A stretch of 64,000 nt of DNA from Centroscyllium fabricii (GCA_051313645.2 JBNRSN020000010.1:9114001-9178000), one strand, 5' to 3'; positions 7,616 through 50,202 are shown, counted from the first letter of the stretch. Program-made: numbers and translations. The notes: generated from the letters alone by a model not told the origin.

Positions 7616-9061
7616 GGGGAGGGGTTAAAGGGGACGGGTTAGAGGGGGATTCACATTCGGTGTGGAGTGGCAGTGCGTGGAGATTAATCATAGAACCATA
7701 GAGATTATTAGCTCACTACCGTTACACTGGAGTTGACACTGATCCTCCGGGATTATTTTTGCACTACACTTGCACTAGAGTTGACAGTTCTACTCCAGTA
7801 TGATTGATGGACTACACGTACACCAGAGTGGACATTTCTCCTCTGGCATTATAAATGCACTACACTCACACTAGAGTGGGCACTGCCCCACCGGTTTTAG
7901 TGGTGATCTGCACTTACACTAGAGATTACGCTGCTGTTCTGGTATTAGTCTTGCACTATACTTTCTTCTGGTTGGACACTGCTCCTCCAGTTTTCTTGTT
8001 GCACTGCAAATACATTCGATTGCTGCCTGCTCCTCCAGTATTATTGGTGCACTACACTTACAGTAGATTTGACCGTGCTCCTCCGCTATTATTCATGCAG
8101 TACAATTACAATAGAGTGCACACTGCTCCTTCGCTCTTGCTGGTGCACAATAATTACACTAGAGTTTACACTGCTCCAGTATTTTGCATGCACTATATTT
8201 ACACTAGAGTTGACACTGTTCCTCCGTTATTACTGGTGTACTATACTTATACTAGATTTGACACTGCTCCTCCGGAATTATTGGCATACTACACTTACAC
8301 TAAAGTGAACATTGCTCCACCGGTATTATTCCTGCATTACACTTAGACTAATGTTGACGATTCTCCTGCAGTATTATTGGTGCACTAAACATACACTAGA
8401 TTTGGCACAGTTTCTCCAGTTGTATTGGTGCACAATAGTTAGACTGGATTTGACACAGTTCCTCCGGTAAAATTGTTGCAATACTCTTACACTAGTCTGG
8501 ATACTGCTCCTCCTGCATTATTGGAGCACTACATTTACACAAGAATGAACACTTCTCCTTCGGTACACATACACGAGAGTGGACACTGCTCCTCCTTTAT
8601 AATTGATGCACTACACTTACTCTAGAAGGACACTGCTCCTCCAGTATTATTGGTGCTCTACACTTAGGTTGGCGTTGATACTGTTCCTCCCGTATTATTG
8701 GTGCACTGCACTTACACCAGAGTTGAAACTGCTGTGCTAGTATTTTTGGTGCACTATACTTACACAAATGTTGCCAAGGTACCTCCTGTAGTATTAATTC
8801 ACTACAAATAGACTAGCGTTGACAGAGCTCTTCCAGTATTATTGGTGTACATACAGTTAAACTGGAGTTGACACTGCTTCTCCGCTATTATTGGTTCACT
8901 GCACTTACACTAGAATTGACATTGATCCTCCGGGCTTATTGATGCACTACACCAGCACCAGAGCCGACACTACTCCTCTGGTATTAGTGTTTCACAATAT
9001 TTTCACTACAGTTGACACTGCTCCTCCGGTGTTATTGGTGCACTACACTTATACTAGATTT

Positions 9062-9460: not shown

Positions 9461-10100
9461 GTTGACACTGCTCCTCCGGTATTATTGATGCACTACACTT
9501 ACAGAAGTGTTCACACTGGTCCTCAGATATTATTGGTGCTCTGCACCTACCCTAGAGTTGACAGTGCCCCAGTATTTATCGTGCACTACAATTACTCTGC
9601 AGTTGACACTGTTTCCCCTGTATTATTGGTTCACTACACTTACACTAGAGTTGACAGTGCTCCTCCAGTACTATTGGTGTACTAGCCTTACTCTGGATTT
9701 TACACTGCCCCTCCAGTATTATTGCTGCACAACACTTATACTAGAGTTGACAATGCTCCTCCGGTATTATTGGCGCACAACATCTACACAAGAGTGGACA
9801 CTGCTCCACCGATATTACTGGTGCTCTACATTTCCAGCAGAGATGACACTGGTCGTCCTTTATTATTGGTTTACTACACTTACACTAGAGTTGACAGTGC
9901 TTCTCCAGTATTATTAATGTACCACCCTTACACCGAATTTGACACTGCTCCTCTGGTATTTTTGCTTCAATTCACTTACGATAGAGTTGACACTGGTCGT
10001 CCGGTATTATTGTTGCACTACACTTACACTAGATCTGACTCTGCTCTTCCGGTATTATTGATGCACGACATTTGCACTAGATTGCACACTGCCCCTCCGG

Positions 10101-10527
10101 TATATAACGTAGATAAATGCGAGGTTATCCACTTTGCTGTCAAAATCAGAAAGGCAGACTATTATCTCAATGGAAATAAATTGGGAGATGGGGAAGTGCA
10201 ACGAGAACTGGGTGTTCTTGTGCACCAGTCGTTGAAAGTAAGCATGCAGGTGCAGCAGGTGGTGAGGTAGGCAAATGGTATGTTAGCCTTCATAGCGAAA
10301 GGGTTTGAGTACACGAACAATAATTTCCTGCTACAGTTGTACAGGGCCTTGGTGAGACCACACCTCGAGTACTTTGTGCAGTTTTGATCGCCTTATCTGA
10401 CGAAGGATGTTCCTGCTATGGAAGGAGTTCAGCGAAGATTCACAAGGCTGATAACTGGAATGGCAGGAATGACTTATGATGAGATATTGGGTCGATTGGG
10501 CTTATACTCGCTGGGGTTTAGAAGAAT
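10101..10527 (+). mobile_element. CR1 internal fragment within the satellite
   Basis: YNVDKCEVIHF...ELGVLVHQSLKVSMQVQQ at the end of ORF 9722-10270. Confidence 0.85.
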
Positions 10528-10657: not shown

Positions 10658-11271
10658 TAGATACCAGAGTGCATAGATCACCTCTGGTATTATTGGTGTA
10701 TTACACCTACACTGGAGTGGACACTGCTGCTCCAGTATTATTCCTGCACTACACCTATACTAGAGACGATACGTCTCCTCCAGTATTGTTAGTGCACTAC
10801 ACTTACAGTAGAGTTGACACTGCTCCTCCGCGATTATTGATGTACTACACTTACACTGGAGTGGACACTGCTGTTCTGGTATTATTCGTGCACTATATTT
10901 ACACTAGAGTTGACACTGCCCCTCCGGTACTATTCATGCAGAACACTTATAATGGAATGGTACTTCTCCTCCGGTATTATTGGTGCACTACACTTACACG
11001 GGAGTGGACACTGCTCCTCCAGTATTAATGCTGCACTGCACTTATACTAGAGTGAACACTGCTCCTCCGGGATTACCTGTGCACTGCACTTACACGGGAG
11101 TGGACACTGCTGTTCTGGTATTATTCGTGCACTATATTTACACTAGATTTGACACTGCCCCTCCGGTATTATTCATGCAGAACACTTATAATAGAGTGGT
11201 ACTTCTCCTCCGGTATTATTGGTGCACTACACTTACACTAGAGTGGACACAGCGCCTCCAGTATTAATGCT

Positions 11272-11492
11272 TCTTCTTGTCGTATCTTCTTTCGAAGGGG
11301 TGGATGGAGTTTTTTAACAGACCGGTTAACGGTCTGCCTTTTGACCGCGCGTTAGCGCCTCCTCCGTGGTCACTGCCTGCTATTGCACCTGGTCTTCCCC
11401 GATGGTCTCCCATCCAAGTACTGACCAGGCCTGACTCTGCTTAGTTTCCGAGGTCGACTTGGGATCGGGCGTTCTAGACTAGCAGGCCGGGG
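11272..11492 (-). mobile_element. 5S rRNA-derived SINE (SINE3-type), 221 bp, with perfect 13-bp TSD
   Basis: Minus strand GAACGCCCGATCCCAAGTCGACCTCGGAAACTAAGCAGAGTCAGGCCTGGTCAGTACTTGGATGGGAGACC...ACCAGGTGC aligns to 5S rRNA including box A and box C; then about 108 nt of non-5S body ending GATACGACAAGAAGA; flanked by CAGTATTAATGCT at 11259-11271 and 11493-11505. Confidence 0.88.
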
Positions 11493-12992
11493 CAGTATTA
11501 ATGCTGCACTGCACTTATACTAGAGTGAACACTGCTCCTCCGGGATTTCCTGTGCACTACACTTACACGGGAGTGAACACTGCTCCTCCTGGATTAATGC
11601 TGCACTGCACTTATACTAGAGTGAACACTGCTCCTCCGGGATTACCTGTGCACTACACTTACACGGGAGTGGACACTGCTCCTCTTGGTTTATTGATGCG
11701 CTACACTTATATTGCAGAGTTGACACTGCTCCTCCGTTATTATTCATGCACAACACTTACACCTGAGAGGATAATTCTCCTCCGGTTTTATTGGTGCACT
11801 ACACGTACACTGGAGTGGACAATGCTCCTCCAGAATTATTGGTGCAGTACACTTACAATTGACTTGGCACTGCTCCACCAATATTATTGATGCACTACTG
11901 TTACACTAGATTTGACACTGTTCCTTTGGTGTAAATTGTGCAGTACACTTACACTAAATTTGACACTGTACCTCTGTTGATGTTGTTGAACTACCCTTAT
12001 ACTAGAGTTGGCACTGTACCTCTGGTGATGTTGGTGAACTACCCTTACACTAGAGTTGACTCTGCTCCTCCGGTACTACTGGTGCACTGCAATTACACTA
12101 GAGTTGATGCTGCTCCTCCGTTAGTTTTGGTGCTCTAATATTACACGAGATTTTACAATGTTCCTCCGTTATTATTGGTGCACTACAATTACACTTGCTT
12201 TGACACTGCTTCTGCATTATAATTGGTGCACTTCACTTACACTAGAGTGGTCACGGCTCCTCTGGTATTATTGCTGTAATAAACTTAAACTTCTGTTGCC
12301 ACTGCTCCACCGGATTTATTCATGAAGTTCACATTCATTAGAGTTGATATTGCTCCTACAGTATTATTGGTGCACTAAATTTACACTAGAGTGGAAACTA
12401 CTCCTCCGGTATAATTGGTGCTCTACATTAACACTAGATGTGACACTGCTTCTCTAGTAGTATTGCTGCTCAACACTTGACACTGCTCAGCCGGCATTAT
12501 TGGCCCAAAATTAGCCTCGGAGCCTTCCTGCGAGTGTAGGCCTCCAAGGTATACTTACCCTGCGCTCCTGCCATTCTGCAATTCTGGGATGTGAAATCCC
12601 GATTTGTAAAGCTGCTTCAAGATCCAGGTGTCGGGCTGGTGTAACTGAACGTCATACTTAGTGGGAGATCTCACGTGGGACCACGTGGTCTGCAGTGAGC
12701 CAATGAATGGAAGCAATCCACCATTAATAACTTTCACGGAGAAATCTGTGTAAGTTATGAAAAAGAAGAGCTTCAAAAACACATCTGAACTCAAACATAA
12801 AATTAAAAAACCACCACATTGCTTTACAATATTCTAACTAACAAAAAATTCCTATTTTAAAGGAAAAAAGTAAATTCAAAAAATTTAAAAAAAAGTTTTT
12901 ATGAGTGGCCTACAGTCTTTGAAGTTTACAAAACAGAAAAACCTGCAAAAAAACTTAAATTCTATAAAATAAAACACGTCCTGATAAAAAGG

Positions 12993-15174
12993 CCATGATT
13001 TGAAGGTGCCACTGTTGGACTGGGGTGGACAGATGTAAGAAGTCACACAACACCAGGTTGCAGTCCAACAGTTTTACTTGAAATCACAAGCTTTCAGAGC
13101 ACTGCTCCTTCGTCAGGTGACGTGAAGAGATGCACATAAGCAAAGCATATAAAGTCAGAAAACAATGCTTGAAGATTACAGGTAATTTTGCAAACTGCCC
13201 CTTTATCACACCTCGGCAAAGAGAGAATCTCCGCAATTATGGGTGTAATTGGTGTCGAAACATGTCAGTCAGCAACACATTCCATCAAAGAACAATGAGG
13301 AGGGGTCACAAGGGGTCAAATGTTGCACATGCTGTATGAACCGCAAAAAAACAAACAAGCAGTAAAAAATAAAATGAAATACAAAATGTTTTTCTGGAAA
13401 TCACAGCATGTCCAGCCGCATCTGTGTAGGGAGAAGCTGCCAAGGACGACCCAAGTCTGGATGATGCTACATCAGGTGGGGTTATATGTAGCGTGACATG
13501 AAGCTAAGATCCCAGTTGAGACCATCCTCATGAGTGCGAACTTGGCTATCAGTTTCTGCTCGACGATTTTGCGTCGTCGTGTGTCTCGAAGGTAACCCTG
13601 GAGACTTCTTCACTGCACAGGATCTCCAACCAACGCTGTACACCAGATACAACGACGACATTTTCCTCCAATGGACCCACGGTGAAAAATCACTGAAAAG
13701 ACTACACGTTAACATCAACAAGTTCCATCCCACTATCAAACGCACCATGGACTACTCCTCAGAATCGGTGTCATTTTTGGACACACGAATCACCATCAAA
13801 GACGGACACATCAGCACTTCACTCTACTGCAAGCCCACTGAAAACCTCAGGACGTTCCACTTCTGCAGCTTCCACCCTAACGACGTTAAATAATCCATCC
13901 CCTATGGACAAGCCCTGCGAATACACAGGATCTGCTCAGGCGAGGAGGAATGTGATGGACACCTGCAGACGCTGAAAGAAGCCCTCGTAAGAACAGGATA
14001 TAACACTCGACTGGTCAATCGACAGTTCTGACGTTGCACAGCGAAATATCGCATAGACCTCCTCAAAAGACAAACATAAGACACAGCCAACATAGTACCT
14101 TTGTACGTCCAGTACTCCCCCGGAGCGGAGTAACTATGCCATGTTATTCGCAGCCTTCAACATGTCATCCATGATGACAAACACCTCACTAAGGCCATCC
14201 CCACGCCTCCACCACTCGTCTTCAAACAGCTGCCTAACCTCCAACAGACCATCGTTCGCAGCAAATTATCCAGCTTTCAGGAGAACAGCAACCACAACAC
14301 CACACAACACTGCCTCAGCAACCTCTGCAAGACATGCCAGATCATCAACACAGTTAACACCAACACACGTGAGGACACCACCCACTGGTTACATGGTATA
14401 TTCTCATGTAAATTGGCTAAAGTTGTCTACCTCATACGTTGCAGGAAAGGATGCCCCGGAGCATGGTACATCGGCGAGACCATGCAGACACTGCGACCAC
14501 GGATGAACGGACACTGCGCAAGAATCGCCAGGCAGGAGTATTCCCTCCCAGTCGGGGAGCACTTCAGCTGTCAAGGACATTCAGCCTCCGATCTTCAGGT
14601 AAGCATTCTCAAAGGTGGCCTTCGAGACACACGACAATGCAAAATCGTCGAGCAGAACTTGATAGCCAAGTTCCGCACTCATGAGGATGGTCTCAACCGG
14701 GATCTTGGCTTCATATCATGTTACATGTTACCCCACCTGACGTAGAGTCATCCAGACTCGAGTCGTCATTGGCTGATTCTTTCTACCATGATGCGGCTGG
14801 ACATGCTGTGATTTCCAGAAAAAACTTTTTTATTTCATTTAATTTTTTACTGTTTGTTTGTTTTTTTGCTTTTCATACAGCATGTGCAACATTTGACCTC
14901 TTGTGACCACATCTCATTGTTCTTTGATGGAATGTTCTGCTGACTGACCTGTTTGGACACCATTTACACCCATTATTGCGGTGATTATCTCTCTGCCGAG
15001 GTGTGATAAAGGACAGTTGGAAACATTTCCTGTAATCATCAAGCATTGTTTTCTGACTATATATGCTGTGACTATGTGCATCATTTCACTTCACCTGATG
15101 GAGCAGCGCTCCAAAATCTTGTGATTTCAAATAAAACTGTTGGACTATAACCTGGTGTTGTGTGACTTCTTACA
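12993..15174 (+). mobile_element. Penelope-like element (partial RT + GIY-YIG endonuclease) with an inverted 3'-end copy on the left; 12-bp TSD
   Basis: YTRYNDDIF...VSFLDT...LYCKPT (13534-13893); VVYLIRCRKGCPGAWYIGET (14413-14745); 12993-13590 is the reverse complement of the 3' end; CTGATAAAAAGG at 12981-12992 and 15175-15186. Confidence 0.92.
13084..13120 (-). ncRNA. Minimal type I hammerhead ribozyme motif in a Penelope pseudo-LTR
   Basis: Minus strand TCAC-CTGACGA-AGGAGC-AGT-GCTCT-GAAA-GC-TT-GTGA: CUGANGA and GAAA boxes, helices I and II. The + strand counterpart at 15091-15124 is degenerate. Confidence 0.75.
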
Positions 15175-15405: not shown

Positions 15406-18400
15406 ATTGTTATCCTACACTTACACTAGTGTGTATACTTCTCCTCCAGTATTACAGGTGTACTACACGTACACTTGAGTGTATACTTCTACTCTGTTCT
15501 AATTGATGAACTAAGCTCACACTAGAGTGGACACTGCTCTTCCGCTATTATTGGTGTGCTACAGTTACACGAGAGTTGACACTATTCCTCTGGTATTAAT
15601 GATGCACTGCCCTTAAACTAGATTTGACACAGCTCCTCCGGTATTATTGGTAAATTACACTTACACTGGAGTTGTAACTGCTCCTCCAGTATGATTGCTG
15701 CGCTGCATTTACACTAGAGTTGACTCTCTCCGATATTATTGGTGCTCTATACTTACACTTGAGTTGACACTGCTATTCACGCATTATTGGTGCACTACAC
15801 TTGCACTAGAGTTGACACTACTCCTCCGGTTTTATTAGGGCACTCCCCTTAATCTAGAGTGGACACTTCTCCTCTGGTATTACTGTTGCACTACACTGAC
15901 ACTAGATTTGACAATGCTCCTCCGTTATTATTGGCGAATGACATTTATACTACAATTGACACTGCTTCTCTGGTATAATTGGTGCAATCCACTTACATTA
16001 GAGTGGAAACTGCTCCTCCGGCATTATTGCTGCACCACAATTACATTAGAATTGAAACTACTCCTCCAATATTAATGGTGCAGCACACTTACACTAGAGT
16101 TGACACTGCTCCTCCGGTATTATTGGTGCACGACACTTAATCTAGATTTGATACTGCTCCTCCGGTATTATTCGTGCATTATATTTCCACTAGAGTGGAT
16201 TCTCCTCCCCCGTTATTATTGCTGCACTACATTTACACTAGTTTTGACACGGCTCCTCCTGTATTAATGGCGCATTACATTTTCAGTAGAGTTGACACTG
16301 CTCCTCGGGGATTATAGGTGCACACAAATTACACTAGATTTGACACTGCTCCTCCGGCATTTTTGGTGCACGAAACGTTTTCTAGATTTGACACTGCTCC
16401 TCCGCTATTATTGGTGCAGTAAACTTACAATAGGCTTGACAATGTTCCTCCGGTATTATTGATGCACTACAATTACACTCGGTATGACACTGCTCCTCCG
16501 GTATTATTGGTGCTATATATTACAATAGACTTGACACAGCTCCTCCAGTATTGTTGGTGCACTACACATACACTAGAGGTGACACTGTTCCTGCAGTGTA
16601 AATGGTGCACTGCATTTACACTAGAGTTGATACTGTTCCTCTGGTGGTATTGGTGAACTACACATACACTAGACGCGAAATGGCTCATCTGGTGTTTCTG
16701 GTGCACTTAACATACACTAGAGTTGACACGGCTCCTCCAGTACTACCGTTGCACTACACTTACACTAGAGTTTAGACTGCTCCTCCAGTATTATTGTTGC
16801 TTTACACTTGCACTAGAGTAGACAAAGCTTCTCCGTTATTATTGCTGCACTACAGTTACACGTGTTTTTTCACTGCTCCTCCGGTGTTACTGCTGCACTT
16901 CACTTGCACAAGTGTTGTCACTGCTTCTGCAATATTATTTTTGCACTGCACTTACACTAGAGTGGATACTGATCCTTCAGTATTACTGGTGCGACACACT
17001 TACACTAGACTTGATACTGGTAGCATTTGTGAAGTACACTTACACTAGAGCGGACACTGCTCCATCGGTATTATTGGTGCACTACACTTACACTAGTGTT
17101 GACACTGCTCCTCGAGTATTATAGGTGCACTACACTTGAATTAGATTTTACACTGCTCCTCCGGTGTTATTGGTGACTACACTTACACTAGAGTGGATAT
17201 TACTCCTCCGGTCTTGTTTGTGCACTACACTTGCACTAGATTATATACTGCTGCTCGAGTATTATAGGTGGACTACACGTACAGTCGAGTGGTTACTTCT
17301 CCTCCATTCTAATTGAAGCACTGCATTTACACTAGAATGGACACTGCTGCTCCGCTGTTTTTGGTGCTCTAAAATTTCAGGAGAGTTGACACTGCTCCTC
17401 CGGTATTATTGGTGCTTTACACTTACACTGGTGTTTTAACTGCTCCTCCAGTATGATTGTTGCACTACATTTACACTATTGTTGACTCTGTTCCTCTGCG
17501 ATTATTGGTGCACTTCACTTACACTAGATTTGACACTGCTAATCAACTATTATTGGTGCACTACACTTGCACAAAGTTGGCACTGCTCCTCCGGTGTTAT
17601 TGGTGTAATGAACTTTTGCTAGATTTGGCACTGCTCCTCTGGTATTATCGGTGCACAACACTTACAAGAGATTTGCCACTGTTCATCCGGGATTATTGGT
17701 GCACTACAATTATATTAGAGGTGATACAGTTCCTCTGGTATTATTGGTGCACTACACTTACACTAGAGTGTGCGCAGCTCCTCTGGTATTAATGATGCAC
17801 TGCACTTAAACGAGATTTGACGCTACTCCTCCGGTATTACTGGTACACTACACTTGCAGTAGAGTTGACACTGTTCCACCGGTTCTATTGGTGTGCTACA
17901 CTAACACTAGAGGTGACAGTGCTCCTTCTGTGTTATTGGTGCATTGCACTTACACTAGAGTTAAAGCTGCTCCTCCTTTATTATTGGTGCACTGCACTTA
18001 CAGTAGATTTGATACTGTTCCACAGGTGCTATTGGTACACCATCCTTAGACTAGAGTTGGCACTTCTCCTCCGGTATTATTGGCGCACTGCACCTACACC
18101 AGATTTGACACTGCTCCTCCAGTATTTTTGGTGCACTACACTTACACTAGATTTGAAAATGTTCCTCCGGTATTAATGTTGCACTACACTTAGACTAGAG
18201 TGGACACTGCTCCTCCATTATTATTGGTGCACTACACTTACACTAAGTGGACACTGCTCATCTGGTAGTATTGGTGCACTACACTTGCACTTGCGAGGAC
18301 AATGCTCCTCCGGTTTTATTGGTGCACCACGATTATACTAGCGTGGACACTGATTCTCCTACATTAATGATGTTCTACACCTACACTAGAGTGTACCCTG

Positions 18401-18790
18401 CTCCTCCTGTAATATTGGAGCAGGTCACTAACACTAGAGTTGAAATTGCTCCTCCGGTATTATTTTTGCACTACATTTTCACTAGAATTGATACCGCTTC
18501 TCCAGTATTATTGCTGAAATACACTTACACTAGATTTGACACTGTTGCTCCTGTATTATTTGTGAACTACATTTGTACTGGGATTGAGACTGCTTCTCCA
18601 GTATTATTGGTGCACTTCAATTAGCTAGATTTTACACTTTTGCTCCGCTATTATTGGTGTACAACACTTACACTAGATTTGACACTGTTGTTCCAGTATC
18701 ATTGCTGCACTACAATTACACTAGAGTTGACACTGCTCCTCCGGTGTTATTGGTACCCACACCTACAACAGAGTGAATACTTCTCCTCCC
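15406..18790 (+). repeat. 48-bp tandem repeat array, part 2
   Basis: Same consensus as 7710-12500, resuming right after the MITE. Confidence 0.95.
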
Positions 18791-19610
18791 TAACTGTTCT
18801 CCGATGCTAGTGGTGCCCTACACTATATGTAACAGTTCCCCGGTACGAGTGGTACAATACACTAGATATAGCAGTTCTCCAGTGCTAATCGTAAACTACA
18901 CGGGATGTAACAGTTCTCCAGTGCTCGTGGTACCTAACACTAGATGTAACAGCTCTCCGGTACTAGTGATACCCTACACTAGATGTAACCGTTCTCTTGT
19001 ACTAGTGGTACCTTACACCAGATGCAGCAGTTCTACAGTACTTGTGGTACCCTACACCAGAAGTAACGTTTCTCCGGTACTAGTGGTACCCTACACTAGA
19101 AGTAACCGTTCTCTTGTACTAGTGGTACCTTACACAAGATGCAGCAGTTATCCAGTTCTTGTGGTACCCAGCACCAGATCTGACAGTTCTCCAGTACTAG
19201 AGGTACCCTCCATTCGATGTAATTCTTCTCAGTTGCTAGTGGTGCACTACACTTTATGTAACAGTTCTCAGTATCTATTGGTACCCTATACTAGATGTAA
19301 CAGTTCTCCGGTACTAGTGGTAGCCTACACTAGATGTGACAGTTCTCAGTTACTTGTGGTACGCTGCACTTCTACTAGGGGTGACCGTGATTCTCGGGTA
19401 CTGGTATTAGCCCCGCACTTAAAGTGATGTTGCCGTTCTCTTCTGGTACCACTAGTATCCTACACTTTCACTCCAACTTAGCATATTGCTCTGGTAGGTG
19501 CAACCTACACGAGAGATGAACATGCTGCTTCTGTACTAGTGGTACACCGCACTTACATTAAAGGTGACTATGCTCGTCCAATACTAGTTCTGTTCCACAC
19601 TTAAAATGTA
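18790..19610 (+). repeat. 39-bp variant tandem repeat
   Basis: Unit TACACTAGATGTAACAGTTCTCCGGTACTAGTGGTACCC; 13-aa periodicity (YTRCNSSPVLVVP) in ORF 18804-19427. Confidence 0.9.
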
Positions 19611-25599: not shown

Positions 25600-25715
25600 T
25601 GACCGTGAATGTTGGAAGGCTATTTAACCGTCTTATAATACTCCTGTGAAGCGCCTTGGGACGTTTTACTATGTTAAAGAAAGCTGCTATATAAATATTT
25701 GTTGTTGTTGTTGGC
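25600..25715 (+). mobile_element. L2-type 3' tail fragment
   Basis: CTCCTGTGAAGCGCCTTGGGACGTTTTACTATGTTAAAG...TATATAAAT...(GTT)n; the reverse-oriented relative is at 37095-37570. Confidence 0.65.
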
Positions 25716-25737
25716 TGGCATTGCAACAGAGCCGGAT

Positions 25738-26145
25738 GGGCAGCACGGTGGCACAGTGGTTAGCACTGTTGTCTCACAGCACTGGAGACCCGGGTACAAA
25801 TCCAGCCTCGGGTGACTATATGTGTGGAGTTTGCACATTCTCCCCGTGTCTGCGTGGGTTTCCTCCGGGTGCTCCGGTTTCCTCCCACAGTCCAAAGATG
25901 TGCGCGTTAGGTTGATTGGCCAGGATAAATTGACCCTTAGTGTTAGGGTGATTGAATATGTGGGGTTACAGGGATAGGGTGGGATATGTGTCGGTGCAGG
26001 CTCGATAGGGATCGAGGGATATGGGGACAAAGCAGGGACAGGGTGCTGGGTTTGGATGATCAGCCATGATCTCATTGAATGGCAGAGCAGGCTCGAAGGG
26101 CCGAATGGCCTTCTCCTGCTCCTATCTTCTATGTTTCTATGTTTC
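25738..26145 (+). mobile_element. HE1-type V-SINE, full length, long-tail form
   Basis: A-box TGGCACAGTGG, B-box region GGGTACAAATCC, V-domain, CR1 tail. Confidence 0.92.
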
Positions 26146-28465: not shown

Positions 28466-31400
28466 TGTGACAGGTGTGGTGGTGGACCCATGTGCAGAAC
28501 AAACAGCCAGAGACACAAGATGCAGTAGAACTCAGGAGATAAGTTACTCGAAGACTCTTCATACAGCAGATCAAGTAATGATTCCAAGAAACAACAGGAC
28601 ATCCACAACTCTGTGACCTGAAGACACGAGACCTCAAGGCCGAGTGACTGGGGCTAGAAATATTTGGCTTACATATCAGGTCTGATTACTTCAACAAAAT
28701 AATTACTTGAATGAGACACAGGTGAGGAGAGTCACTGAGATTTGGCAGCATGGTACAGAGGAATCCTAAACCTCCCTCTGGTGGCTGGCAGAGGAACGAG
28801 TGGCTGGAATGCTGACAGTACCTCCCCCGCTAGGGACGGCACCTGATATACCCACAATAGACTCTGGCTGGCGCTGGTGGAACTGCCGGAAATGCCCAGG
28901 ATCCAGGATGTCCGGAGCCGGAACCCAGGAGCGGTCCTCGGGTCCATATCCCTCGCAATCCACCAAATATTGGAGTCCCCCGCAGACCCAGAGGGAGCGA
29001 AGAAGACGGCAGACGGTGTAGGTGGGCTGGTCCCCTACTAGTCGAGGGGCTGGAGGTGGTCTGGTGGCTCTAGACAGGGGACTGGTCCACACAGTTTTGA
29101 GTCGGGAGACACGGAAGGAAGGATGGATCCTCATGGATTGAGGAAACAGGAGTCGGCAGGATACTGGGTTTATCTTCCGGAGTATCTTGAATGGACCAAA
29201 GAAGCGAGAAGCCAGTTTGCGGGACTCGACCCACAGGGGAAGGTCCCGGGTGGAGAGCCACACCATCTGCCCGGGCCAGAGCAAAGCTGCAGGATTGCGT
29301 CGTCGGTTGACCTGGTTCCTCGGTCGACGTGATGCCAGTTGCAGTGCAGAACGGCCCTTTCTCCAGGTCCTCCGGTAGCGTCGGACGAACAACTCAGCCG
29401 ACGGTAACATCACCTCAGGCTCCTGTTCAGAGAACAATGGAGGTCGGTAATGTGTTGTGAGCATATCCTGCCCAAATGAGTTGTTTGCTCCAAGTAGAGG
29501 GGTTGGAGGAGGCAAGGCAACGCAGGGTTGTCACCAGGTCTTGATTCACCCTCTAGTTTTGCCCATTGGACTGGGAATGGAAACCCGAGTAGAGTCTGAC
29601 TGCTGCACCCAGGAGATGACAGAAAGCCTTCCAGAACCGGGAAGTGAACTGGGGACCACGGTGTGACACTGTGTCTAGAGGAAGACCATATAAACGGAAG
29701 GCGTGTTGTGCCGTAAATTCCACGGTTTATAAACATAGAAACATGGAAACATGTAAGATAGGAGCAGGAGTAGGCCATTCGGCCCTTCGAGCCTGCTCCG
29801 CCATTCAATGAGATCATGGCTGATCATCCAAACCCAGTAACCTGTCCCTGCCTTGTCCCCATATCCCTCGATCCCCATCGAGCCTGCACCGACACATATC
29901 CCACCCTATCCCCATAACCCCACATATTCAATCCCCCTAACACTAAGGGTCAATTTATCATGGCCAATCAACCTAAACTGCACATCGTTGGACTGTGGGA
30001 GGAAACCGGAGCACCCGGAGGAAACCCACGCAGACACGGAGAGAATTTGCAAACTCCACACAGAGAGTTCTCGAGGCTGGATTTGAACCCGGGTCTCTAG
30101 TGCTGTAAGGCAACAGTGGTAAGCACTATGCCACCGTGCCGCCCATTGCTTTTTACTTTCTTGCCTGGATTTTTCCATTGATGTCAATGTTTCTTGGGCA
30201 GAAGGAAGTTTGGGCAGGGGGACGAAGTGGCAGGCCTTGGAGAACTGGTCGACAACAACTAGGATGTCATTGTTACCCTGGGACGGACGGGGGCAGACCG
30301 GTGATAAAGCCCATGGAAATGTGGGACCAAGGACGGTTCGGAAAGGGGAGCGGATGAAGGAGGCCATGTGGACCTGTCCTGAGGTTCTTCTGCTGGGCAC
30401 AGCTGTTGCAAGCTAAGACAAATGACCAGCCGTCTTTCTCGACCGATGGCCACCAGAATCGCCTGCGGACGAACTCGAGAATTCGGGCGACTCCTGAATG
30501 CCCAGTTAGCCAGGACGTGTGCTCCCACTGCAGGACATGGGTTCGGACTGTCGTGGGAAGAAACAGTCGATTCGGAGTTTCGACACCTGGATCGGACTCC
30601 CGCCATTGTGCATCTCGAACGGTGGTGTCGATGCCCCAGCGAACCGAAGCCAAAATCCTGGAGCTCGGAAGGATGGGTGTCAGGCTCTTGCTTATGTCCG
30701 GGGGCTGGAATTGACGAGAGAGCACCTCAGATTTCAGATTTTGGGACCCGGGCCGGTAAGAGAGGATGAACTCGAATCGAGTGAAGAAGAGCACCCACCG
30801 GGCCTGGCGAGAATTGAGGCGTTTGGCATGCTGGATGTAGGCGAGGTTCTTATGGTTGGTCCAGACCACGAATCGGTGTTTGCTGGCCTCTTGCCAGTTC
30901 CTCCATTCTTCCAATGCTAACTTGACCGCAAACAGTTGTTTGTTGCCGATAATATAGCTGCACTCAGCAGGCAATAGCCGCCTGGAAAATAAGGCACACA
31001 GGTGGAGTTTGCCGCTATAGAGCTGAAGTCTCTGAAGAATCTTCTGTAGAAGTTGGCGAAGCCGTTGAAGCGTTGGGCCTGTTTGACTGCAGTGGGTGTT
31101 GTCCAGTCACAGACAGCCTGGGCTTTATCTGGATCCATCTGCGTCCATCTGGGTGCCGCCATTGGTGACGATAAAGCCAAATAAGGAGACAGTGGAGACA
31201 TATAACTCACTTTTGTCGAGTTTGACATGCAGGTGGTTTTTAAGAAGCCGGTGCAGTACCTCTCGGACGTGTTGAACATGTTCGTGGGGGGAGCTGGAAA
31301 AGATGAGAATGTCATCAATGTAGACGAAGACGATCAGGTTGAGCAGATCACGAAGAACGTCGTTATTCAGGGATTGAAAGACCGCTCGTGCATTGGCCAA

Positions 31401-33729
31401 ACGAAACTGCATTACCAAGTATTCATAATGGCCAGTAGGGCTGTTCAACGCGGGCTTCCACTGTTTTCCTTCCCTTATACAGACCAAATTGCCTGCATTA
31501 CGAAGATCCAGCATGGTACAGCGCGTGGACCCCTGCCGGAGCTCGAACACAGTGGACATAAGAGGGAGGGGGTAGCGATTCGTCACTGTGGTCCGGTTGA
31601 GGCCGCGATAATTATTGCATGGGCGGACACTCCCATCCGTTTTTACACAAAATAGAAGGCTGCCCCGGCAGGGGAGGTGGAAGGATGGATAGCACCAGTG
31701 AAGAGGGCGTCATGGATATACTCCTCCATAGCCGCGGTCTCGGGGGATGAGAGAGAGAATAGACGACCCCGCGGAGGACAGGTGACGGATAACAGGTCGA
31801 TGGCACAGTCGCACGGGTGGTGAGGAGGAAGAGTGACGCCCCGCTTCTTACTGAAGACCTCTATAAGGTCGGTATATGCAGGTCGACCTCGAGGAGCATC
31901 GGGGGGAATGGAGAGCTCGGGGCACTTGAGAAGTGGTGCCGAGAATAGGCAGGTTGCTTGACAGGTAGGTCCCCATTCCATGAGTGCCCCAGTAAACCAG
32001 TTGATATGTGGATTATGAAGAGCCAACCAGGGAAAATCCAGGACCAGAGGGAACTCGGGGGAATAAATTAGGTGGAGCTTGATTGTCTCTTGGTGGTGCT
32101 TCTCCACACATAACTGCAGGAGGATAGTGATTCGGCAGATGTTACCAGAGCCCAAAGGTCTACCATCAAGTGCAGTAATTGTACGTGGCTGGTCGAGATC
32201 GATCCTTGGGATCTTCAGCTGTCTAGCGAAGTTGATATCCATGAAATTCCCCGCCGCTCCAGAATCCACAAAAGCACGGAGAGTGTGTTGCTGATTACCC
32301 TAAGAGAGACAAGTGTAGAGACGGACACCTGAAGAAGTAGATTCGAGAGTGGTGATTTGACTCATCACAGTCCTCCCGCTTTTGGACGAGTCCTGGCTTT
32401 TCCCACCAGCTCGGGGCAGGTATCGCAGAAGTGTCAGAATTCCCCGCAGTAGATGCAGCTTCTCTCGCGCATCCATCGCTCCCGTTCAGATTAGGAGATT
32501 CGAGTTCTGCCCAGCTGCACGGGCTTCTCCGCGGCGATATGTGGCGTTGGGCTCGGGGGTGCCGCATTGGGGATGTCCCAGAAGTGCCTGGAAGTCATCG
32601 CTGAGGTGCTGGCTCTGAGATCCAGGGGCGAGAGGAACAGGCGGCGGCATTCTCTTCGCCACTCTCGGAGTCGATTGTCAATCCGAATGGCTATATTGAT
32701 AAGAGCCTCGAGATCCGATGTACATTCACGGGAGGCCAGTTCATCTTTGACATCCTCTGAATGACCGTGAGAAAATGTGGCAATAGGTGCCTCCATATTC
32801 CAAAGACTCCCAGTGGCAAGAGTACGGAATTCAATAGCGTAGACGGATACAGCATGATTGACCTGATGCAGGTGTAGCAGTCTATTGCCCGTCACTGGCC
32901 CGCAAACTTAATAGTCGAAGGCTTGCCTCATCTCCTCGGAGAACATCCGACAGTTGAAGCAGGCTTGTCTGTCTCTCCAAAATGGCCTGGCCCAAACGAG
33001 GCTCTCCCGGTGAGCAGGGTGAAGATGAAAGCGACCTTAGAGCGATCGTTGGGAAATCTAGAAGGCTGGAGCTCAAATGCTAGAGAACACTGCGAGGAAG
33101 CCGCGACACTTGCCTGGTTGACCGTTGTATAGTTCGGGAGCTGGAAGGTATGAATCCTTGTCTTGTCGAGGATGAGGTGCTGGAAGTTGTGCTGAGTCCG
33201 GCTGCTGGCTGTGCCCGACAGCCTCTGCTAGGGAATGTAGGCTATCACAAATCGAATGCAGTAATTGGGCATGCCTCTCGACATTGGTTCCTTGGCTCCG
33301 CAGGGTAAAGCGGAGTTGATTTATCACCTCCTGTGGTTGGCTGTTCTCTGCTGGGTCTATGTTGATGTCGTGGTCTTGCTGTGACGGCTGTGTTGGTGGA
33401 CCAAGGTGCAAAACAAACAGCCAGAGGCATAAGATGCAGTAGAACTCAGGAGATACTTTACTCGAAGGCTCTTCATACAACAGATCAAGTAACGATTACA
33501 AGAAACAACAGGACATACACAACTCTGTGACTTGCAGGCACGAGACCTCAAGACCGACTGACTGGGGTTAGAAATATTTGGCTTATATAACAGGCCGGAT
33601 TACTTCAACAAGATCATTTCTTGAATGAGACACAGGTGAGGAGAGAGTGTTATTTGGCAGCCTGTTACAGAGGCATCCTAAACCGCCCTCTGGTGGCTGG
33701 CAGAGGAACGAGTGGCTGGAATCCTGACA
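28466..33729 (-). mobile_element. Gypsy chromovirus (sushi/Tf1-like) LTR retrotransposon, decayed: gag-PR-RT-RNaseH-IN-chromodomain
   Basis: LTRs 28466-28817 and 33380-33729 (TG...CA, about 350 bp); TSD GTCAT/GCCAT; PPT AGCGGGGGAGG; gag (ELYNGQPGKCRGFL, YAIEFRTLA), protease [21 protein letters not shown], RNaseH WTNHKNL, integrase VVVDQFSK, chromodomain QYLVDCEGYGPEDRSW. Confidence 0.95.
29731..30144 (-). mobile_element. HE1-type V-SINE inserted in the Gypsy integrase
   Basis: Full head, V-domain and tail; interrupts the integrase between PSAQET and ...[10 protein letters not shown]. Confidence 0.9.
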
Positions 33730-37649: not shown

Positions 37650-38984
37650 AGGTGACAAATCAACTCCTGTACTAGAGGTACCCCATCACTTACAGTTGCG
37701 GTCATTAAGCTTCTCTTTTAGTTGAGGAATCCGTTCACTTACACTAGGGATGACAAAGCTCCTCTTGTACTAGTGGTACCCCATCAGTTAAACTAGAGGT
37801 GTCCAAGCTCCTCTTGTATTAGTGGTGCCATTTCACCTAAACCTGATGTGACCAAATTCCTCTTCTACTCGTCGTACAGCTTCACGTATACTGGAGGTGA
37901 GCAAGCTCCTCTTGCACCATTGGAACCCCTACACTTACTCTGGTGGTCATCAATCTCCTCTTGTACTAGTGGTAAATCTTCACTTACACTAGAGGTGACC
38001 AAGCTCCTGTTGTACCAGTGAAACCCTACCCTTACATTAGTAGTGACCAAACTCCTCTTGTACAAGTGGCCCCCTACATTTACACGAGAAGTGACCCAGC
38101 AACACTTGTACCATTGGAACCCCTACTCTTACACTAGTGTTGACCAAGCATGTGTTGTGCTCGTGGTACACGTACACTTACACGAGGGGTGACCAACTCC
38201 TCTTGTACCATTGGAACCCCTACACTTACACAAGTGGTGACCAAGCTCCTCTTGTACTAGTGATACCCGTACACTTACACGAGAGGTGACCAAACTCCTC
38301 TTGAATGAGTCGTCCCCCGTACACATACACTTGATGTGTACAAGCTCCTCCGGTACCACTGGTACCCGACAATATCACAGGAGTTGCCCGTACTCCTCCG
38401 GTATATTGGGACCATACACTTACACAGAGCTTTTACAGCGTTTTCTGTTGTTATTTCCTCTTGTTCCAGTTGTACTATTACACTTACACCAGATGTGACC
38501 AAGCTTACCTTGTACTAGTCGTCCCTGTACACGTACACTAGATTAGGCCAAGCACCTCTTGTACTATTGGTAACCCTTCATTTACACTAGTGGTGACCAA
38601 GCTGTTCTTGTACTATTGGTCCCCCTACAGTTACACTAGATGTGACCAACTGCTCATTTACTATTGTTCCCCCTATTCTTGCACTAGTGCTAACCACGCC
38701 GCACTTGTACGAATGGCCCCCCTACACTTACACTAGAGGTGACTAAGCTCCTCTTTTATTGTGGCACCCGTACTATTGCACTAGAGGTGACCAATCTCCT
38801 CTGGTACTAGTGGTCGCCTTACACTTACATTGAGGTGGCCAAGCTTGTCTTGTTCTAGTGGTACGACTTCACTTACACTAGATGTGACCAAGGTCGTCTT
38901 GCACGAATGGTGCCCGTGCACTTACACTAGATTTGGCCAAGCTCTCCTTGTACTATTCGTCCCCCTACACTTACACTAGTGGTG
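37650..38984 (+). repeat. 49-bp variant tandem repeat, part 1
   Basis: Unit about TACACTTACACTAGAGGTGACCAAGCTCCTCTTGTACTAGTGGTACCCC; period measured between 38221 and 38270. Confidence 0.9.
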
Positions 38985-39042: not shown

Positions 39043-42000
39043 TGATGCACTATCAATAACTCCAAAAGACTAGAAGTGGTACGAGTAAGAAATCAGCCTT
39101 TATTGACTAAAGAAGACGAGCATGTCTCCAGCTGTAGACCGATCCTGAAAGCCCGTGGGAGGGGAGCTCAGTTATCTTTATACCTGTGATTAGGTGTGGA
39201 GCCAGGGGCGGAGCAAGCAGAGACATGCCCAGACAAGTTATGTACAAAAAGAACAGTGTTTTACCACATTCACCCCTTGCTTAAAATGAGTCCGGCGGGG
39301 TGAAGTGTCTCAGAAGTTCGTGTAATTAAGTCTCTCCGGGGTTCTTGTTAGCCTAAGTGACCGTCGAGGTGCCAACTGTGGTGGTTCATCTCTCGCGGCC
39401 GTTTACCGCTTGGGCCGGAGCACTGGTGTGTCGTCTTCCTGGATGCTGATTTGGTTGGCATATGAGGGTGGGTCACGGCGCCCCGGCGTGCCATGAAATG
39501 GGGTCAGTTATGGATTCCCTGCTACAGGTGTGTCGTGGGTAACGGTAGAGGGCAAGGGTGGTGGAGAGTGGGCTATGGTGGTTTCAGCGGCCCCCAAGGT
39601 TGCGAGGTCTTGTATGAAGACTGTGTCCTCCCGCCCATCGCGATACGCCACGTATGCATATTGTGGTTTGGCGTGGAGGAGGTGGACACTTTCTGCTAGG
39701 GGGTCTGTTTTATGGCTCCTCGTGTGCTTCTGGATTAGGACGTGACCTGGAGACATCAGCCATGGCGGTAGCGGTGTCCGCGATGTGGAACTCCTAGGGA
39801 AGGTGAACATTTTCTCGTGAGGGATGGCATTTGTGGTGGTGCAGATCAGTGACCGTATGGAGTCGGGCGTGTCAGGGTCGTAGCTACCTCTATTTCGAGC
39901 CGGTACTGGCGCAGCTCGTCACTCATAAACGATGTATCTGGTCGTTATGTATGTATCTGGGGTAACCGAATATTGCGAATAGATCATTTAGACATTTGAT
40001 GACCATAGGGCTGGTCATGTCCGAGCAGGGGATGGCGAACGGGAAATGGGAGTACTCATCAATGATGTTGAGGATGTACGTCTTGCGGTCAGAGGAGGGG
40101 AGGGGCCCTTTAAAATCAACGCTCAGGCGCTCAAAGGGGCGAGTGGCTTTTATCAGGTGCGCCCTGTCTGGCCTATATAAATGCGGTTTGCACTCGGCAC
40201 AGACCTGGGAGTTCCTGGTCATGCTCCTGACCTCCTCGATGGAGTAAGGCAGGTTGCGTGCCATAATGAAATGAAAGAACCTGGTGCCCCCGGGTGGCAA
40301 AGATCATTGTGGAGGGCTCGCAGCCTATCGGCCTGTGCGTTTGCACACGTTCCATGGGATAGGACATCTGGGGGCGCATTAAGTTTCCCAGGCCAGTATA
40401 AGATATCGTAATTGTAGGTGGATAATTCGATTCTCCACCTCAATATCTTATCGTTTTTGATTTTGCCCCGCTGCTTGTTTTTGAACATAAATGTTGCTGA
40501 TCATTGGTCAGTGAGCAGGGTGAATCGTTTACCGGCCAGGTAATGCCTCCAATGGTGCACAGTTTCGACTATAGCCTGGGCCTCCTTTTCTACTGAGGAG
40601 TGTCTAATTGCGGGGCCCTGGAGGGTTCGTGAAAAGAAGGCCACGGGTCCCCCCGCCTGAATAAGCGTTGAAGCAGGGCAAAATTGGACACATCGCTCTC
40701 CACCTGGAAAGGGTTGGACTCGTCCACGGCGTGCATTATGGCCTTCGGAATGTCCTCTTTAATGTGGCTGAAGGCTAAGCGGGCTTCTGTCACCAGGCGG
40801 AAGGAGGTGTAATTGACAAGGGGCCGGGCCTTGTCCGCATAATTGGGCAGCCACTGGGCGTAGTAAGAGAAGAACCCCTGACATCTCTTCAGGGCCTTGA
40901 GGCAGTGAGTCAGAGGTAGTTCCAGGAGGGGGTGCATCCGGTCGGAGTTGGGGCCGACGACTCCGTTTTCCACAACACAGCCAAGGATAGCGAGGTGGTT
41001 GATGTGAATCATACATTTTCCCTTGTTATAGGTCAAAACTAAGCGCTGGACTGTGCGGAGGAATTTTTCGAGGTTGGCGTCATGTTCCTGCAGGTCATGG
41101 CTGCAGATTGTAACGCTGTCCAGGTAGGGAAAAGTGGCCTGCAGCGCGTTTTGTTCGACCATCCGATCCATCTCCCTTTGGTGACGCTGAAGGGAAACCT
41201 AAGGAAGTCGTAGAGTTGGCCGTTTACTTCGAAGGCAGTATAATGGCGGTCCGCAGGCCTGATAGGGTGTTGGTGATATGCCGACTTAAGGTCAATGGTA
41301 GAGAGTACTGGTACTGCACAATCTGTTTGACCATATCAGATATGCGGGGAGTGGGTATGCATATAACTGGGAATATCTATTGCTCGTTTGACGATAGTCA
41401 ATGACCAGGCGCTGTTTCTCGCAGGTCTTCACAACCACTACTTGGGCTCGCCATGGGCTGGTGCTACCCTCGATGATCCCTTCCCACAGGAGCCTCTCTA
41501 CTTCTGATTTTATGAAGACAGTGTCCCCGGCACTGTACCGCCTGGTTTTGGTGGCGATAGCTTTGTAATTGTGGGCGAGGTTAGCGAACAACGGGGGTGA
41601 GGCTGACTTTCAGTGTGGATTGGCTGCATATTGTGCATGGCGGGTGTTTTAATTTTTCTGGCTGCAGACTGTAAGTGCAGCAGCTGTGGAAGAACAAGGA
41701 GCTTGAAGCCTTGTACAACGTGCCCTTCACAGTCAGGCTCACTACACAGTAGCCGCCAACGCCCGCTGTATGGGACTTGGAGGCCATATAGATCCGATGC
41801 CGTGCCGGCAGGACTGAAAGGGAATAGCACCACACTATGCTCCCGCAGTCAAACAGGCAGTTCGTAGCACGGCCGTTTATCCTGATGTCCAACATGGACC
41901 TGGCAAGCTGGTGAGGCTTGGATTGGTCCAGGGTGAAGGAGGCCAGCGTTCGATTTGGTGGGACACTGTCATACTCAGTTGAGGCAATGGGGGAGTCGAG

Positions 42001-43138
42001 GGCTTGATCCCAAAATTGCGGCCGGCACGGCTCACATGCGACTTGTGACATCCACGTTGGCTGCCACCACGGCCCACAGGCGGTGATGCTGGAATAGGAG
42101 GTCGGTTTGGCCTTGCACAGCTTAGCATAGTTCCCCTTCTTACCGCAACCAGAGCAGATCGCATCCTTTGCCGGGCAGCATTGTCTGGGGTGCTTGGCCT
42201 GGCTACAGAAGTAGCACTTTGGGCCTCAGGATATCGCGGCTGTAGTCAGGCTGCTGTTGGGTCGTGCCGGTGGCGGCGTGGTGCAGGCTTGTGTCCCTCC
42301 AAAGTCCCAAGATGGTGGCACCCACAACATCCACGATGTGGCCGCATGGTCAGGGGAGTAGGCATCCATGTTTCGGTGAGCCACATCCAGCGAGTTAGCC
42401 AGTGTCACAGCCTTGGGCAGGTCGAGCCCACCCTGTTCTAACAGTACCTGCCGGGTGCAGCTGGACCTGATGCCAGTGACATAGGCATCCCGGATTAAGA
42501 CCTCCATATATTCTGTGGCCATCACCACTTTTCACTTGCAGGCACGACTGAGGACTTTCAATGCCCGTAGGTATTTGTCACCTGATTCCGCTGGTCGCTG
42601 TTTACGGGTAGCCAGGAGGTGTCTGGCATAGACCTCGTTCACCGGTTCAGTACATTGATGTTTAAGGAGACTGATAGCATCCATATAGGATGTCGCATCG
42701 CAGATCATCGAATATACTTGCTGGCTCACCAGGGAGTTCAGTAACAGCAGCTTGTCGGCTTTGAACATGACGGTAGCGGTGGAGGCCTGCAGGAATGCTT
42801 CAAATCAGCACAGCCAGTGCTCGTAGTTTTTGGAAGCATCCGATGGTTGAGGATCCTACTCCACGTGTTCTGGTTTTACGATTTGCTCCATCATAAAATT
42901 TAATCAATAAAATTGATGCGCTATCAATAACTCCAAAAGACTAGAAGTTAGACGAGTAACAAATCGGCTTTTCTTGACAAAAGAAGACGAGCATGTCTCT
43001 CACTGTAGACCAATCCTGAAAGCCCGGGGAAGGGGAGCTCAGTCACTTTATACCTGGGCTTAGGCGTGGAGCCAGGGGCGGAGCCAGCAGAGACATGCCC
43101 AGACTAGTTATTTACAAACAGAACAGTGGTTTCCCACA
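39043..43138 (-). mobile_element. Gypsy LTR retrotransposon (two gag zinc knuckles, possibly Mag-related), decayed
   Basis: LTRs 39043-39268 and 42914-43138; perfect TSD GGAAC (39038-39042, 43139-43143); PPT AAGGGGTGAA; protease CLFDCGS, RT SPWRAQVVVV and FPYLDSVT, RNaseH QVESDVS, integrase HNDLCHPG and SVDFKGPLP. Confidence 0.93.
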
Positions 43139-45814: not shown

Positions 45815-46295
45815 ATGACCAAGTTCGTTTTGTACGAGTGGTCCCTGTACATTTACACGAGAGTTGGCGAAGCTCCTCTTGTACTATTGGTACCCCATTC
45901 ACTTACACAAGTTGTGACCAAGCTCCTCGTGTACGATTGTTCCCCCTACAGTTACACAAGTGGTGTCCATGCTACATTTAACTAGTGGTGGCCAAACTGC
46001 TCTTGTACGAGAGGTCCCCCCTACTCTTACACTAGAGGTGACCAAGCGTCTCCTGTACTACTGCTACCTCTTCTCTTACACTAGATTTCACCCAGCTCCT
46101 CTGGTACCAGTGGTACCCGATATTATCACGTGAGGTGCCCGTTGTCCTCCTGTATAGTGGGACCGTTCACTTACACTATTAATATTCATCTCCTCCTGTA
46201 TTAATGCACAGATTCACTTAAACTACAGGTGATAATGGTCCAGCGGCACTAGTGGTAACCCTAAACCTACATTAGAGTTGACCAAGCTGTCCCAG
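45815..46295 (+). repeat. 49-bp variant tandem repeat, part 2
   Basis: Resumes mid-unit (ACCAAG...) where 37650-38984 was cut (...TAGTGGTG). Confidence 0.85.
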
Positions 46296-49233: not shown

Positions 49234-50202
49234 ATGATTTCCACAACCAACTCCTGGTATATTAAATTTCCTACAACTATAGCTTGTCCCTTCCTATTTG
49301 TCTTCCTTATTTCATCCACTGCTTCAGATTAAAACTTTCACCCTCACCTTGTCATCAATACCGCACCCTCAGCAATAGCTGCCTTTGTACTTATCTATTA
49401 ATTCTACTTAAAGTGATTTGCGACCGCCCTTTCATTTATATTATTTTTTGCCACATGTCGCTCAACAGATAAACTCTCACATCACCCACTTTTCTCCTGA
49501 TATTGTCTCTTCTAAACAATATGCAGTGTTCAAGATATGAGATCGATTGATTGAATCGTTCCATCGTGGCTGCGTGAAGCTACTCATGTCCAATCTATCA
49601 GTCCCCACAAATACATTCCAGGTCACATACCTTATTTGTCAGACATTTCGCATGAAGTCAAGTAAAGCTCCATTGTTTATTAATCTCACCTTTATGTTAG
49701 TAACATTCAACATTGCTTTTCTCCCAACATTGGGTTCAGATTTAATAAAAGTTAATTTATGTTTTCACTGGCACACCTCAACATTTGCTCCGTTCGGTAT
49801 GGGAATTTAGCTCCAACACCCACCACCAGAGCATCTCGTTTAAACATTGCCCCTCCATTCTATCTGTGCTACCTGCCAACACCTCTCTCCCATTTGAACC
49901 GTGTCCCATTGTTTAAAGAAATACAATCCCGATTCTGTTTGCCTAAGCTTTTACCATGAGTTGATCTGCTGAATTACACATGATTAATCGTCCTTCCCAT
50001 CGCTCTCAATTTAGTACGATGGAGCCCAATCAATACGGGAATCTAATACGGATTGCAAAAATATGAAACGTGTGAGGTTTTTGAAATATTTATTAAAACA
50101 TGTCCAGCCCGGTTACATCCAGACATATCTGGTTTACGAATATTATTGCTGAATATCTGAATCTTAGTTTCAGAACAAGAAGTTTTCCCATGTGGAGACA
50201 TC

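Follow-up and report, generated by a model that had tools for sequence, protein, structure and literature searches.

A 221-nt insert on the minus strand of a Centroscyllium fabricii contig (GCA_051313645.2, JBNRSN020000010.1:9114001-9178000) is probably a full-length short interspersed element (SINE) of the 5S rRNA-headed SINE3 type, which parasitises a Vingi-type long interspersed element (LINE) and in which the LINE ribozyme has been disabled. The whole 64,000-nt stretch analysed is referred to below as the window, and positions are counted from its first letter. The insert, at 11272-11492, comprises a 5S-derived head with an internal RNA polymerase III (Pol III) promoter, a body with an HDV-like (HDV, hepatitis delta virus) ribozyme fold, and a short tail ending in an AAG repeat.

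The element is a genuine retroposed insertion. The satellite that surrounds it is a 48-bp repeat with a local 239-bp higher-order period, and the two junction zones have as their longest shared direct repeat CAGTATTAATGCT, located at 11259-11271 and 11493-11505. A third exact copy occurs at 11020-11032, with no further one in the 64 kb. In silico deletion of the insert together with one repeat produces a gap-free match to the unit located 239 bp upstream (94.7% over 171 nt); a longer alignment of the empty site with the same unit has 281 identical positions of 307. The features of the insertion site are as follows.

11493-11505, no strand: target-site duplication (TSD) on the element's 5' side, 13 bp, an exact copy of 11259-11271
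11259-11271, no strand: TSD on the element's 3' side, 13 bp, exact repeat, overlapped by the tail over 2 nt
11020-11032, no strand: empty site, a single target copy in the paralogous 239-bp higher-order unit, from the satellite alignment
10681-12484, no strand: 48-bp satellite array split by the element, from Tandem Repeats Finder

Among the 124 satellite positions (about 145 units) with up to four mismatches to the TSD, just three carry the exact 13-mer. Since two of these exact copies flank the insert and exact copies are rare in the satellite, an origin of the TSD as a satellite-phase artefact is ruled out. The final AG of the tail overlaps the target, and the TSD can be read either as 13 bp with 2-nt microhomology or as 11 bp. 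An earlier model-based reading of the same DNA, the first-pass annotation, had described a young 221-bp minus-strand insert with a perfect 13-bp TSD. Its size, strand and duplication are borne out, the repeat being exact on both sides and single in the empty unit. The word young holds in a relative sense, as the insertion is later than a satellite duplication now about 5-8% diverged, which dates it relatively and not absolutely. Arrays of the 48-bp satellite extend over 7704-9058, 9461-10103, 10681-12484 and 15415-18789, with 96- and 239-bp higher-order periods and interruptions by LINE fragments; related-looking arrays have periods of 39 bp (18791-19370) and 49 bp (37650-38984 and 45816-45973). 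To the right of the insert, at 11573-11640, lies a third near-copy of the target unit, in which the junction sequence is variant and shorter.

The 5' part of the insert is derived from 5S rRNA, and carries the elements of a type 1 Pol III promoter:

11488-11492, minus strand: GC-rich 5-nt leader before the 5S match, which puts box A at +47 from the insert's 5' end
11375-11487, minus strand: 5S rRNA-derived head, from Rfam RF00001, the pair table and the fold
11432-11446, minus strand: box A of the type 1 Pol III promoter, from motif position; label from established knowledge
11425-11431, minus strand: intermediate element (IE) region, from motif position; label from established knowledge
11407-11416, minus strand: box C core, from the Rfam match and motif position

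The match to Rfam family RF00001 (5S_rRNA) at 11374-11487 on the minus strand scores 54.6 bits (E = 1.2e-8) against a cut-off of 38 bits and is the sole Rfam family match in the window; no tRNA segment was found in the head or the window. The 5' domain has suffered deletions of 8 nt and 1 nt, and the internal control region is gap-free. Helix I of the head retains eight Watson-Crick pairs (11487-11480 with 11375-11382), and the fold of the head compared with shuffles is not significant alone (z = -1.3). Box A, IE and box C begin at +47, +62 and +77 of the insert, uniformly 3 nt nearer the 5' end than in a 5S gene, where they begin at +50, +65 and +80 (positions from general knowledge). Most of the deletion in the 5' domain is compensated by the 5-nt non-5S leader. 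This leader and the near-normal spacing of the boxes suggest that the RNA of the element began where its 5S promoter would set the Pol III start, near 11492. The transcribed strand of the insert has no T run of three or more, and no T4 occurs in the 990 nt downstream. The core of the head is identical to that of the coelacanth CoeSINE5 at about 77-78 of 89 positions (about 87%, by eye; PMC5786205 supplement), and box A of CoeSINE5, counted by eye, begins at +48, compared with +47 here.

With its 5S head and type 1 promoter, short length, TSD, AAG end and lack of an internal terminator, the element has the structure of a SINE3. The 8-nt deletion, the single unit and the absence of T4 within 990 nt downstream do not fit a functional 5S rRNA gene.

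[quoted passage not shown] The first 73 nt of the body, flush with the 3' end of the 5S match, fold into the P1-P2-P3-P4 nesting of HDV-like ribozymes, with the following parts, of which all stems, loops and junctions up to J4/2 are taken from the pair table:

11302-11374, minus strand: degenerate HDV-like (Vingi/CPEB3-type) ribozyme fold, from layout score, anchors, registers and by-eye comparison
11372-11368 with 11346-11342, minus strand: stem P1, 5 bp
11365-11359 with 11309-11303, minus strand: stem P2
11358-11356 with 11349-11347, minus strand: stem P3
11355-11350, minus strand: loop L3
11338-11330 with 11324-11316, minus strand: stem P4
11317-11310, minus strand: junction J4/2, free of C
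11316-11338, minus strand: P4 stem-loop, the hairpin of the first-pass annotation, with seven Watson-Crick and two G.U pairs on the transcribed strand

The 102 nt that follow the head fold better than shuffled sequences (z = -3.39, 1 of 200). A layout scorer that considers structure only (the P1-P2-P3-P4 nesting), with no sequence motifs, assigned a score of 17.5 with the best start at 11374, where the 5S match has its last base; none of 5000 dinucleotide shuffles reached this score. Of the 326 possible ribozyme registers within the insert, 301 start at 11373-11374. Five three-letter anchors at ribozyme spacings occur together once in the window, in the body; the same set turned up in one of 300 shuffles of the window and in one of 100,000 shuffles of the body. 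By eye, the body matches 26 of the 36 positions invariant among Vingi-2_Gav, Vingi-2_SPur, Vingi-1_BF, SINE2-1_AMi and CPEB3; when Vingi-4_Crp, excluded from this count owing to its CpG decay, is included, the count becomes 22 of 31. Of the ten positions that differ among the 36, six preserve a pair in P1 or P2, and the remaining four fall in L3, J1/4 and J4/2. P4 retains seven pairs, three inner ones being altered on both sides relative to SINE2-1_AMi (by eye). The body contains nine CpG dinucleotides, an observed/expected ratio of 1.31 compared with 0.54 for the window, and 8 of 627 tiles reach this number.

Judged from its sequence and layout, the body is a degenerate Vingi-type HDV-like ribozyme, and the hairpin reported previously is its P4. 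The first-pass description of a 5S-like head with boxes A and C, a CpG-rich body and a perfect 7-bp hairpin at 11318-11336 proved accurate on each of these points, with the boxes in register and the hairpin extended by two G.U pairs.

Cleavage by HDV-like ribozymes requires a G1-Y pair, the C-G pairs of P1.1 and a reverse U.G wobble in L3; the catalytic C sits in the CRRA linker J4/2, and cleavage is abolished without it (PMC6326823). Neither a catalytic C nor P1.1 is present in any of the 326 registers. In the best registers J4/2 reads TTAAAAAA and contains no C, and L3 starts with C, which excludes the U.G reverse wobble. At the base of P1, A.A and G.A mismatches lie below the five pairs, and the G1-Y pair of the cleavage site is absent. 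The ribozyme is predicted to be dead in this element. Decay specific to this copy is an unlikely cause, because the four separate losses stand beside intact CpGs and perfect TSDs, though a family-wide loss is not demonstrable from the one copy in hand. These losses matter for the promoter: HDV-like ribozymes cleave immediately upstream of themselves (PMC4035085), and an active ribozyme behind a SINE head would truncate the head and promoter (Kojima, 2018; PMC5786205).

The remaining 3' part of the insert forms the tail:

11272-11301, minus strand: 3' tail consisting of a linker of 4 nt, a GAAA-looped hairpin of 4 bp (11297-11286), ATACGAC and an AAG repeat reaching 2 nt into the target, from motifs and the pair table

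The element ends in ...GATACGACAAGAAGA(AG). The parts of the tail appear, by eye, in the same order as at the end of SINE2-1_AMi (PMC5786205), and no match to the tail was found elsewhere in the window. Mobilisation by L1/Tx1 was set aside on the sequence and established knowledge, there being no poly(A) tail and no A-rich target. Both the AAG-repeat end and the non-CR1 character of the tail had been proposed previously and stand: the insert matches no CR1-like LINE piece and no L2-type tail in the window. To our knowledge, CR1 and L2 elements rarely make long TSDs. The passages of PMC6007223 do not confirm this; they give TSDs of 7-15 bp for RTE elements and name as the RTE signature a stretch of T lying some 10 nt upstream of the 5' TSD. 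In length, the TSD here is within the RTE range; at this single site no such T-stretch lies upstream of its 5' copy. Of the two kinds of partner named in the first-pass annotation, RTE or Vingi/Ingi, the latter is better supported, but by the Vingi-type 5' end and not by the AAG tail or TSD length that had been offered for it.

These features can be combined into a mechanism. The element would descend from an internally deleted Vingi-type LINE reduced to an about 73-nt 5' ribozyme and an about 30-nt 3' end. It would have gained its 5S-derived head flush with the ribozyme cleavage site, most likely by template switching of the reverse transcriptase; the birth of SINEs by a template switch from a LINE-derived to a small RNA was proposed by Kojima (2018; PMC5786205). 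Pol III, directed by the internal A/IE/C promoter, would start near 11492 and read through the insert, since the latter lacks T runs of three or more. An active ribozyme in this position would sever the promoter from every transcript, and the lineage that spread would for this reason have dispensed with the catalytic C, with P1.1 and with the pair at the cleavage site, presumably under selection. P2, P3, P4 and most of P1 have been kept through paired changes, probably for binding of the LINE protein or for RNA stability. This protein would bind the 3' hairpin and nick the target; priming on the AAG repeat, paired over 2 nt, would produce the 13-bp TSD seen at the junction.

Several observations weigh against this reading. 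The fold is not unique by structure alone, as 9 of the 127,800 starts in the window score at least 17.5; the five anchors were picked after the match had been seen, and every comparison with published elements was made by eye. Rfam at E values up to 10 reported no ribozyme family for the body and returned chance-level matches only (mir-128, CRISPR-DR53 and others). The Vingi-type clade of the tail's partner LINE is deduced from the body. The tail of SINE2-1_AMi itself was labelled "unknown" by Kojima, without a LINE match (PMC5786205), and the end of RTE-3_AMi resembles the tail, by eye, over its last about 25 nt, its upstream block being missing here. No Vingi-like LINE was recognised among the 62 of 135 window open reading frames (ORFs) scanned. 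Pfam, which does not separate LINE clades, gave matches for eight of these 62 ORFs (at least 90 aa), all to LINE endonuclease/reverse transcriptase or long terminal repeat (LTR)-retrotransposon domains, none recognisably Vingi or RTE. Finally, a second copy was not found in the 64-kb window by blastn, fuzzy motifs or nhmmer. The head and body patterns gave 0 and 0 matches in GTDB contigs, and blastn none in plasmids and phages; these sets are prokaryotic, and absence from them is expected and uninformative on copy number.

Four other explanations were considered. The one that survives best, though unlikely, is that, in one insertion event, the reverse transcriptase copying a short, non-autonomous RNA of Vingi type jumped to a 5S RNA or the RNA of a 5S SINE, and the product never spread. 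The single copy in the window agrees with such an accident, as does the junction, which coincides exactly with both the 3' end of the 5S match and ribozyme +1, as expected of a template jump. However, a stand-alone Vingi derivative should have a working ribozyme, whereas here four catalytic features are gone and the stems and CpGs are intact. The head, with its deletions, a 5-nt leader that restores the promoter distance, and letters common to CoeSINE5, is also unlike a fresh 5S capture.

Next, and likewise improbable, the same SINE could have been moved by a LINE of the RTE clade (or of the Ingi/I group), the Vingi-type body being a relic and the tail swapped. The short non-CR1 vertebrate SINE3s in PMC5786205 and PMC3747384 are all RTE-type, tail exchange is documented (PMC5786205), the TSD range of RTE elements is 7-15 bp (PMC6007223), and the 3' end of RTE-3_AMi has a similar hairpin-plus-ACGA ending. 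But the about 40-50-nt RTE 3' block and the RTE 5'-untranslated region (UTR) domain of CoeSINE5, WALLSI and SINE-1_Pmo are absent by eye, the distance from ribozyme to tail is the same as in SINE2-1_AMi, and the T-stretch of the RTE signature (PMC6007223) is absent upstream of the 5' TSD at the one site available.

A further possibility, and a very improbable one, is that the ribozyme of the family is active and the present copy damaged, the transcript splitting into a 119-nt 5S-like RNA and a short template. The head has indeed the size of 5S rRNA (119 nt), is closed by helix I with 8 bp and stops where cleavage would occur, and SINE2-1_AMi retains the catalytic-C motif behind its tRNA head. 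Yet four separate catalytic features are gone despite perfect TSDs and intact CpGs, and the copy that was inserted has its full length, head included, which means that its RNA was uncleaved. Least probable of all is that the insert is a 5S rRNA gene that has dispersed, or a processed pseudogene, together with its spacer, and that the body folds as it does by chance. The Rfam 5S score over the cut-off and the lack of an Rfam ribozyme match agree with it, but no terminator of T residues follows the 5S part, immediately or within the next 990 nt, the window has no second 5S unit, the 5' domain has deletions, and the body fits Vingi 5' ends in layout and anchors.

The window contains other repeats and coding remnants. 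For a LINE reverse transcriptase at 43861-44538, the top three of 116 matches are in Callorhinchus milii (61-64%), with turtles lower, at about 50%, and a skate protein at 66% over half of the query; these matches place the host among the cartilaginous fishes. On the plus strand, 25620-25935 is a V-SINE/HE1-like element, with the V-SINE-like repeat near 25735-25935, adjoining an L2/Deu-SINE-like tail that ends in a trinucleotide repeat. Broken LTR-retrotransposon coding sequences with protease, reverse transcriptase, RNase H, integrase and SH3 domains occupy 28766-32299 and 39923-42225 (minus strand). ORFs at 14096-14745 resemble the GIY-YIG endonuclease end of Penelope-type elements (no Pfam match). 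An open frame of 208 codons at 50161-50787 is not transposon-like and has no Pfam family and no homologue among longer proteins (query 50200-50784).

A SINE3 that uses a Vingi-type LINE and carries its disabled ribozyme would be informative in several respects. How the middle bodies of SINEs arose is an open question (PMC5786205), and combinations already known include 5S with RTE and tRNA with Vingi (PMC5786205, PMC3747384). In the open literature searched, no 5S+Vingi SINE, no shark SINE3 and no Vingi-CPEB3 link were found; most subscription papers, Repbase Reports, Dfam and SINEBase were outside this search and may catalogue the family. What is new is the body, a ribozyme of Vingi type that is disabled and joined to a 5S head. 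The earlier suggestion of a possibly undescribed short SINE3 stands as to a 5S-headed retroposed element and was overstated as to novelty, because short non-CR1 5S SINEs are already catalogued (CoeSINE5, SINE-1_Pmo, Ped-1 and HaSE3, all RTE-type; PMC5786205). With its Vingi-type 5' end whole, its stems kept and its catalytic positions lost, the element looks like a test case for the predicted incompatibility of an active LINE 5' ribozyme with a Pol III head.

More tentatively, and short of what we would call probable, the element may represent an uncatalogued family of 5S SINEs, mobilised by Vingi in cartilaginous fish and founded by knock-out of a ribozyme whose fold was kept as a mobilisation signal, the same Vingi ribozyme lineage being the source of that of CPEB3. 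This would be a natural case of a ribozyme domesticated into a SINE body. On the main reading, Vingi would join the SINE3 partners, given as CR1, I and RTE in 2020 (PMC7245038), and a 5S SINE would join the chondrichthyan SINEs, which are so far tRNA-headed in the passages of PMC3747384, PMC5499810 and PMC4824008. A cis-acting unit of about 100 nt is also of interest for gene insertion tools built on Vingi, which employ its 5' and 3' UTRs (PMC13708176).

By eye, the published 5' ends of Vingi LINEs and nucleotides 61-127 of SINE2-1_AMi are nearly identical to the CPEB3 ribozyme (PMC5786205, PMC6326823); for Vingi-2_Gav, the agreement with the ribozyme of mammalian CPEB3 extends to 37 of 40 letters and, at the 3' end, to a further 14 of 15. 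This likeness suggests a ribozyme of the CPEB3 type at the start of Vingi LINEs; the mammalian ribozyme may derive from one, which would give it a transposon origin. Vingi is missing from the ribozyme-bearing clades named by Kojima in the passages of PMC5786205.

The closest known counterpart of the element is SINE2-1_AMi of the alligator (161 nt), which consists of a tRNA head, a Vingi 5' end and an unassigned tail (PMC5786205). In both, a small-RNA head is joined directly to a Vingi 5' end, and the part outside the head is 102 nt here and 101 nt in SINE2-1_AMi. By eye, they also share the P1-P2-P3-L3-P4 order, a short hairpin, an ACGA core, a purine-rich end and an L3 that starts with C. They differ in the head, 5S instead of tRNA, and in the letters of the stems, which are changed in pairs; moreover, SINE2-1_AMi retains the catalytic-C motif and P1.1. 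Its ribozyme part has a shortened P1 together with the C at the first position of L3. The ribozyme of SINE2-1_AMi may have been crippled in another way, and the tail termed "unknown" may be of Vingi type. The anole elements SINE2-1_ACar and SINE2-1B_ACar, known here by description only, combine a tRNA with the 5' and 3' parts of Vingi-2_ACar (PMC5786205, PMC3747384, PMC4494074); they too place a bipartite body and tail of Vingi origin after a Pol III head, and differ from the present element in that the head is a tRNA.

Among 5S-headed elements, CoeSINE5 (225 nt; 5S with RTE 5' and 3' parts, grouped with SINE-1_Pmo, Ped-1 and HaSE3; PMC5786205) is likewise a short SINE3 with a bipartite LINE body, a similar head and a similar position of box A. 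It has an RTE 5'-UTR domain and RTE tail in place of the Vingi-type ribozyme, and another terminal repeat. The conserved RTE 5'-UTR domain is absent from the body by eye in comparison with the published elements, and the ribozyme fold accounts for the whole body. Zebrafish SINE3-1, AmnSINE1 and OS-SINE1 share the 5S head, but the Deu domain of about 330 bp and the CR1/L2-type tails are theirs only (PMC3747384, PMC4824008); with merely 102 nt outside its head, the present element has no Deu domain, as the first-pass annotation had held in setting it apart from zebrafish SINE3 and AmnSINE1. RIME, NARTc and SIDERs of the ingi/L1Tc clade are also internally deleted LINE derivatives that start with an HDV-like ribozyme, inactive in some SIDERs; unlike the element described here, they have no small-RNA head, and the ribozyme, often active, forms their 5' end (PMC3185411, PMC4035085). 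Compared by eye with the 5' ends of Vingi-2_Gav, Vingi-4_Crp, Vingi-2_SPur and Vingi-1_BF and with CPEB3, the body shares P3, the ends of P4, the C-G of L3, the end of P1 and the stem lengths, and departs from them in lacking the J4/2 cytosine and P1.1, in a P1 of 5 bp, in an L3 one base shorter and in a J4/2 four bases longer.

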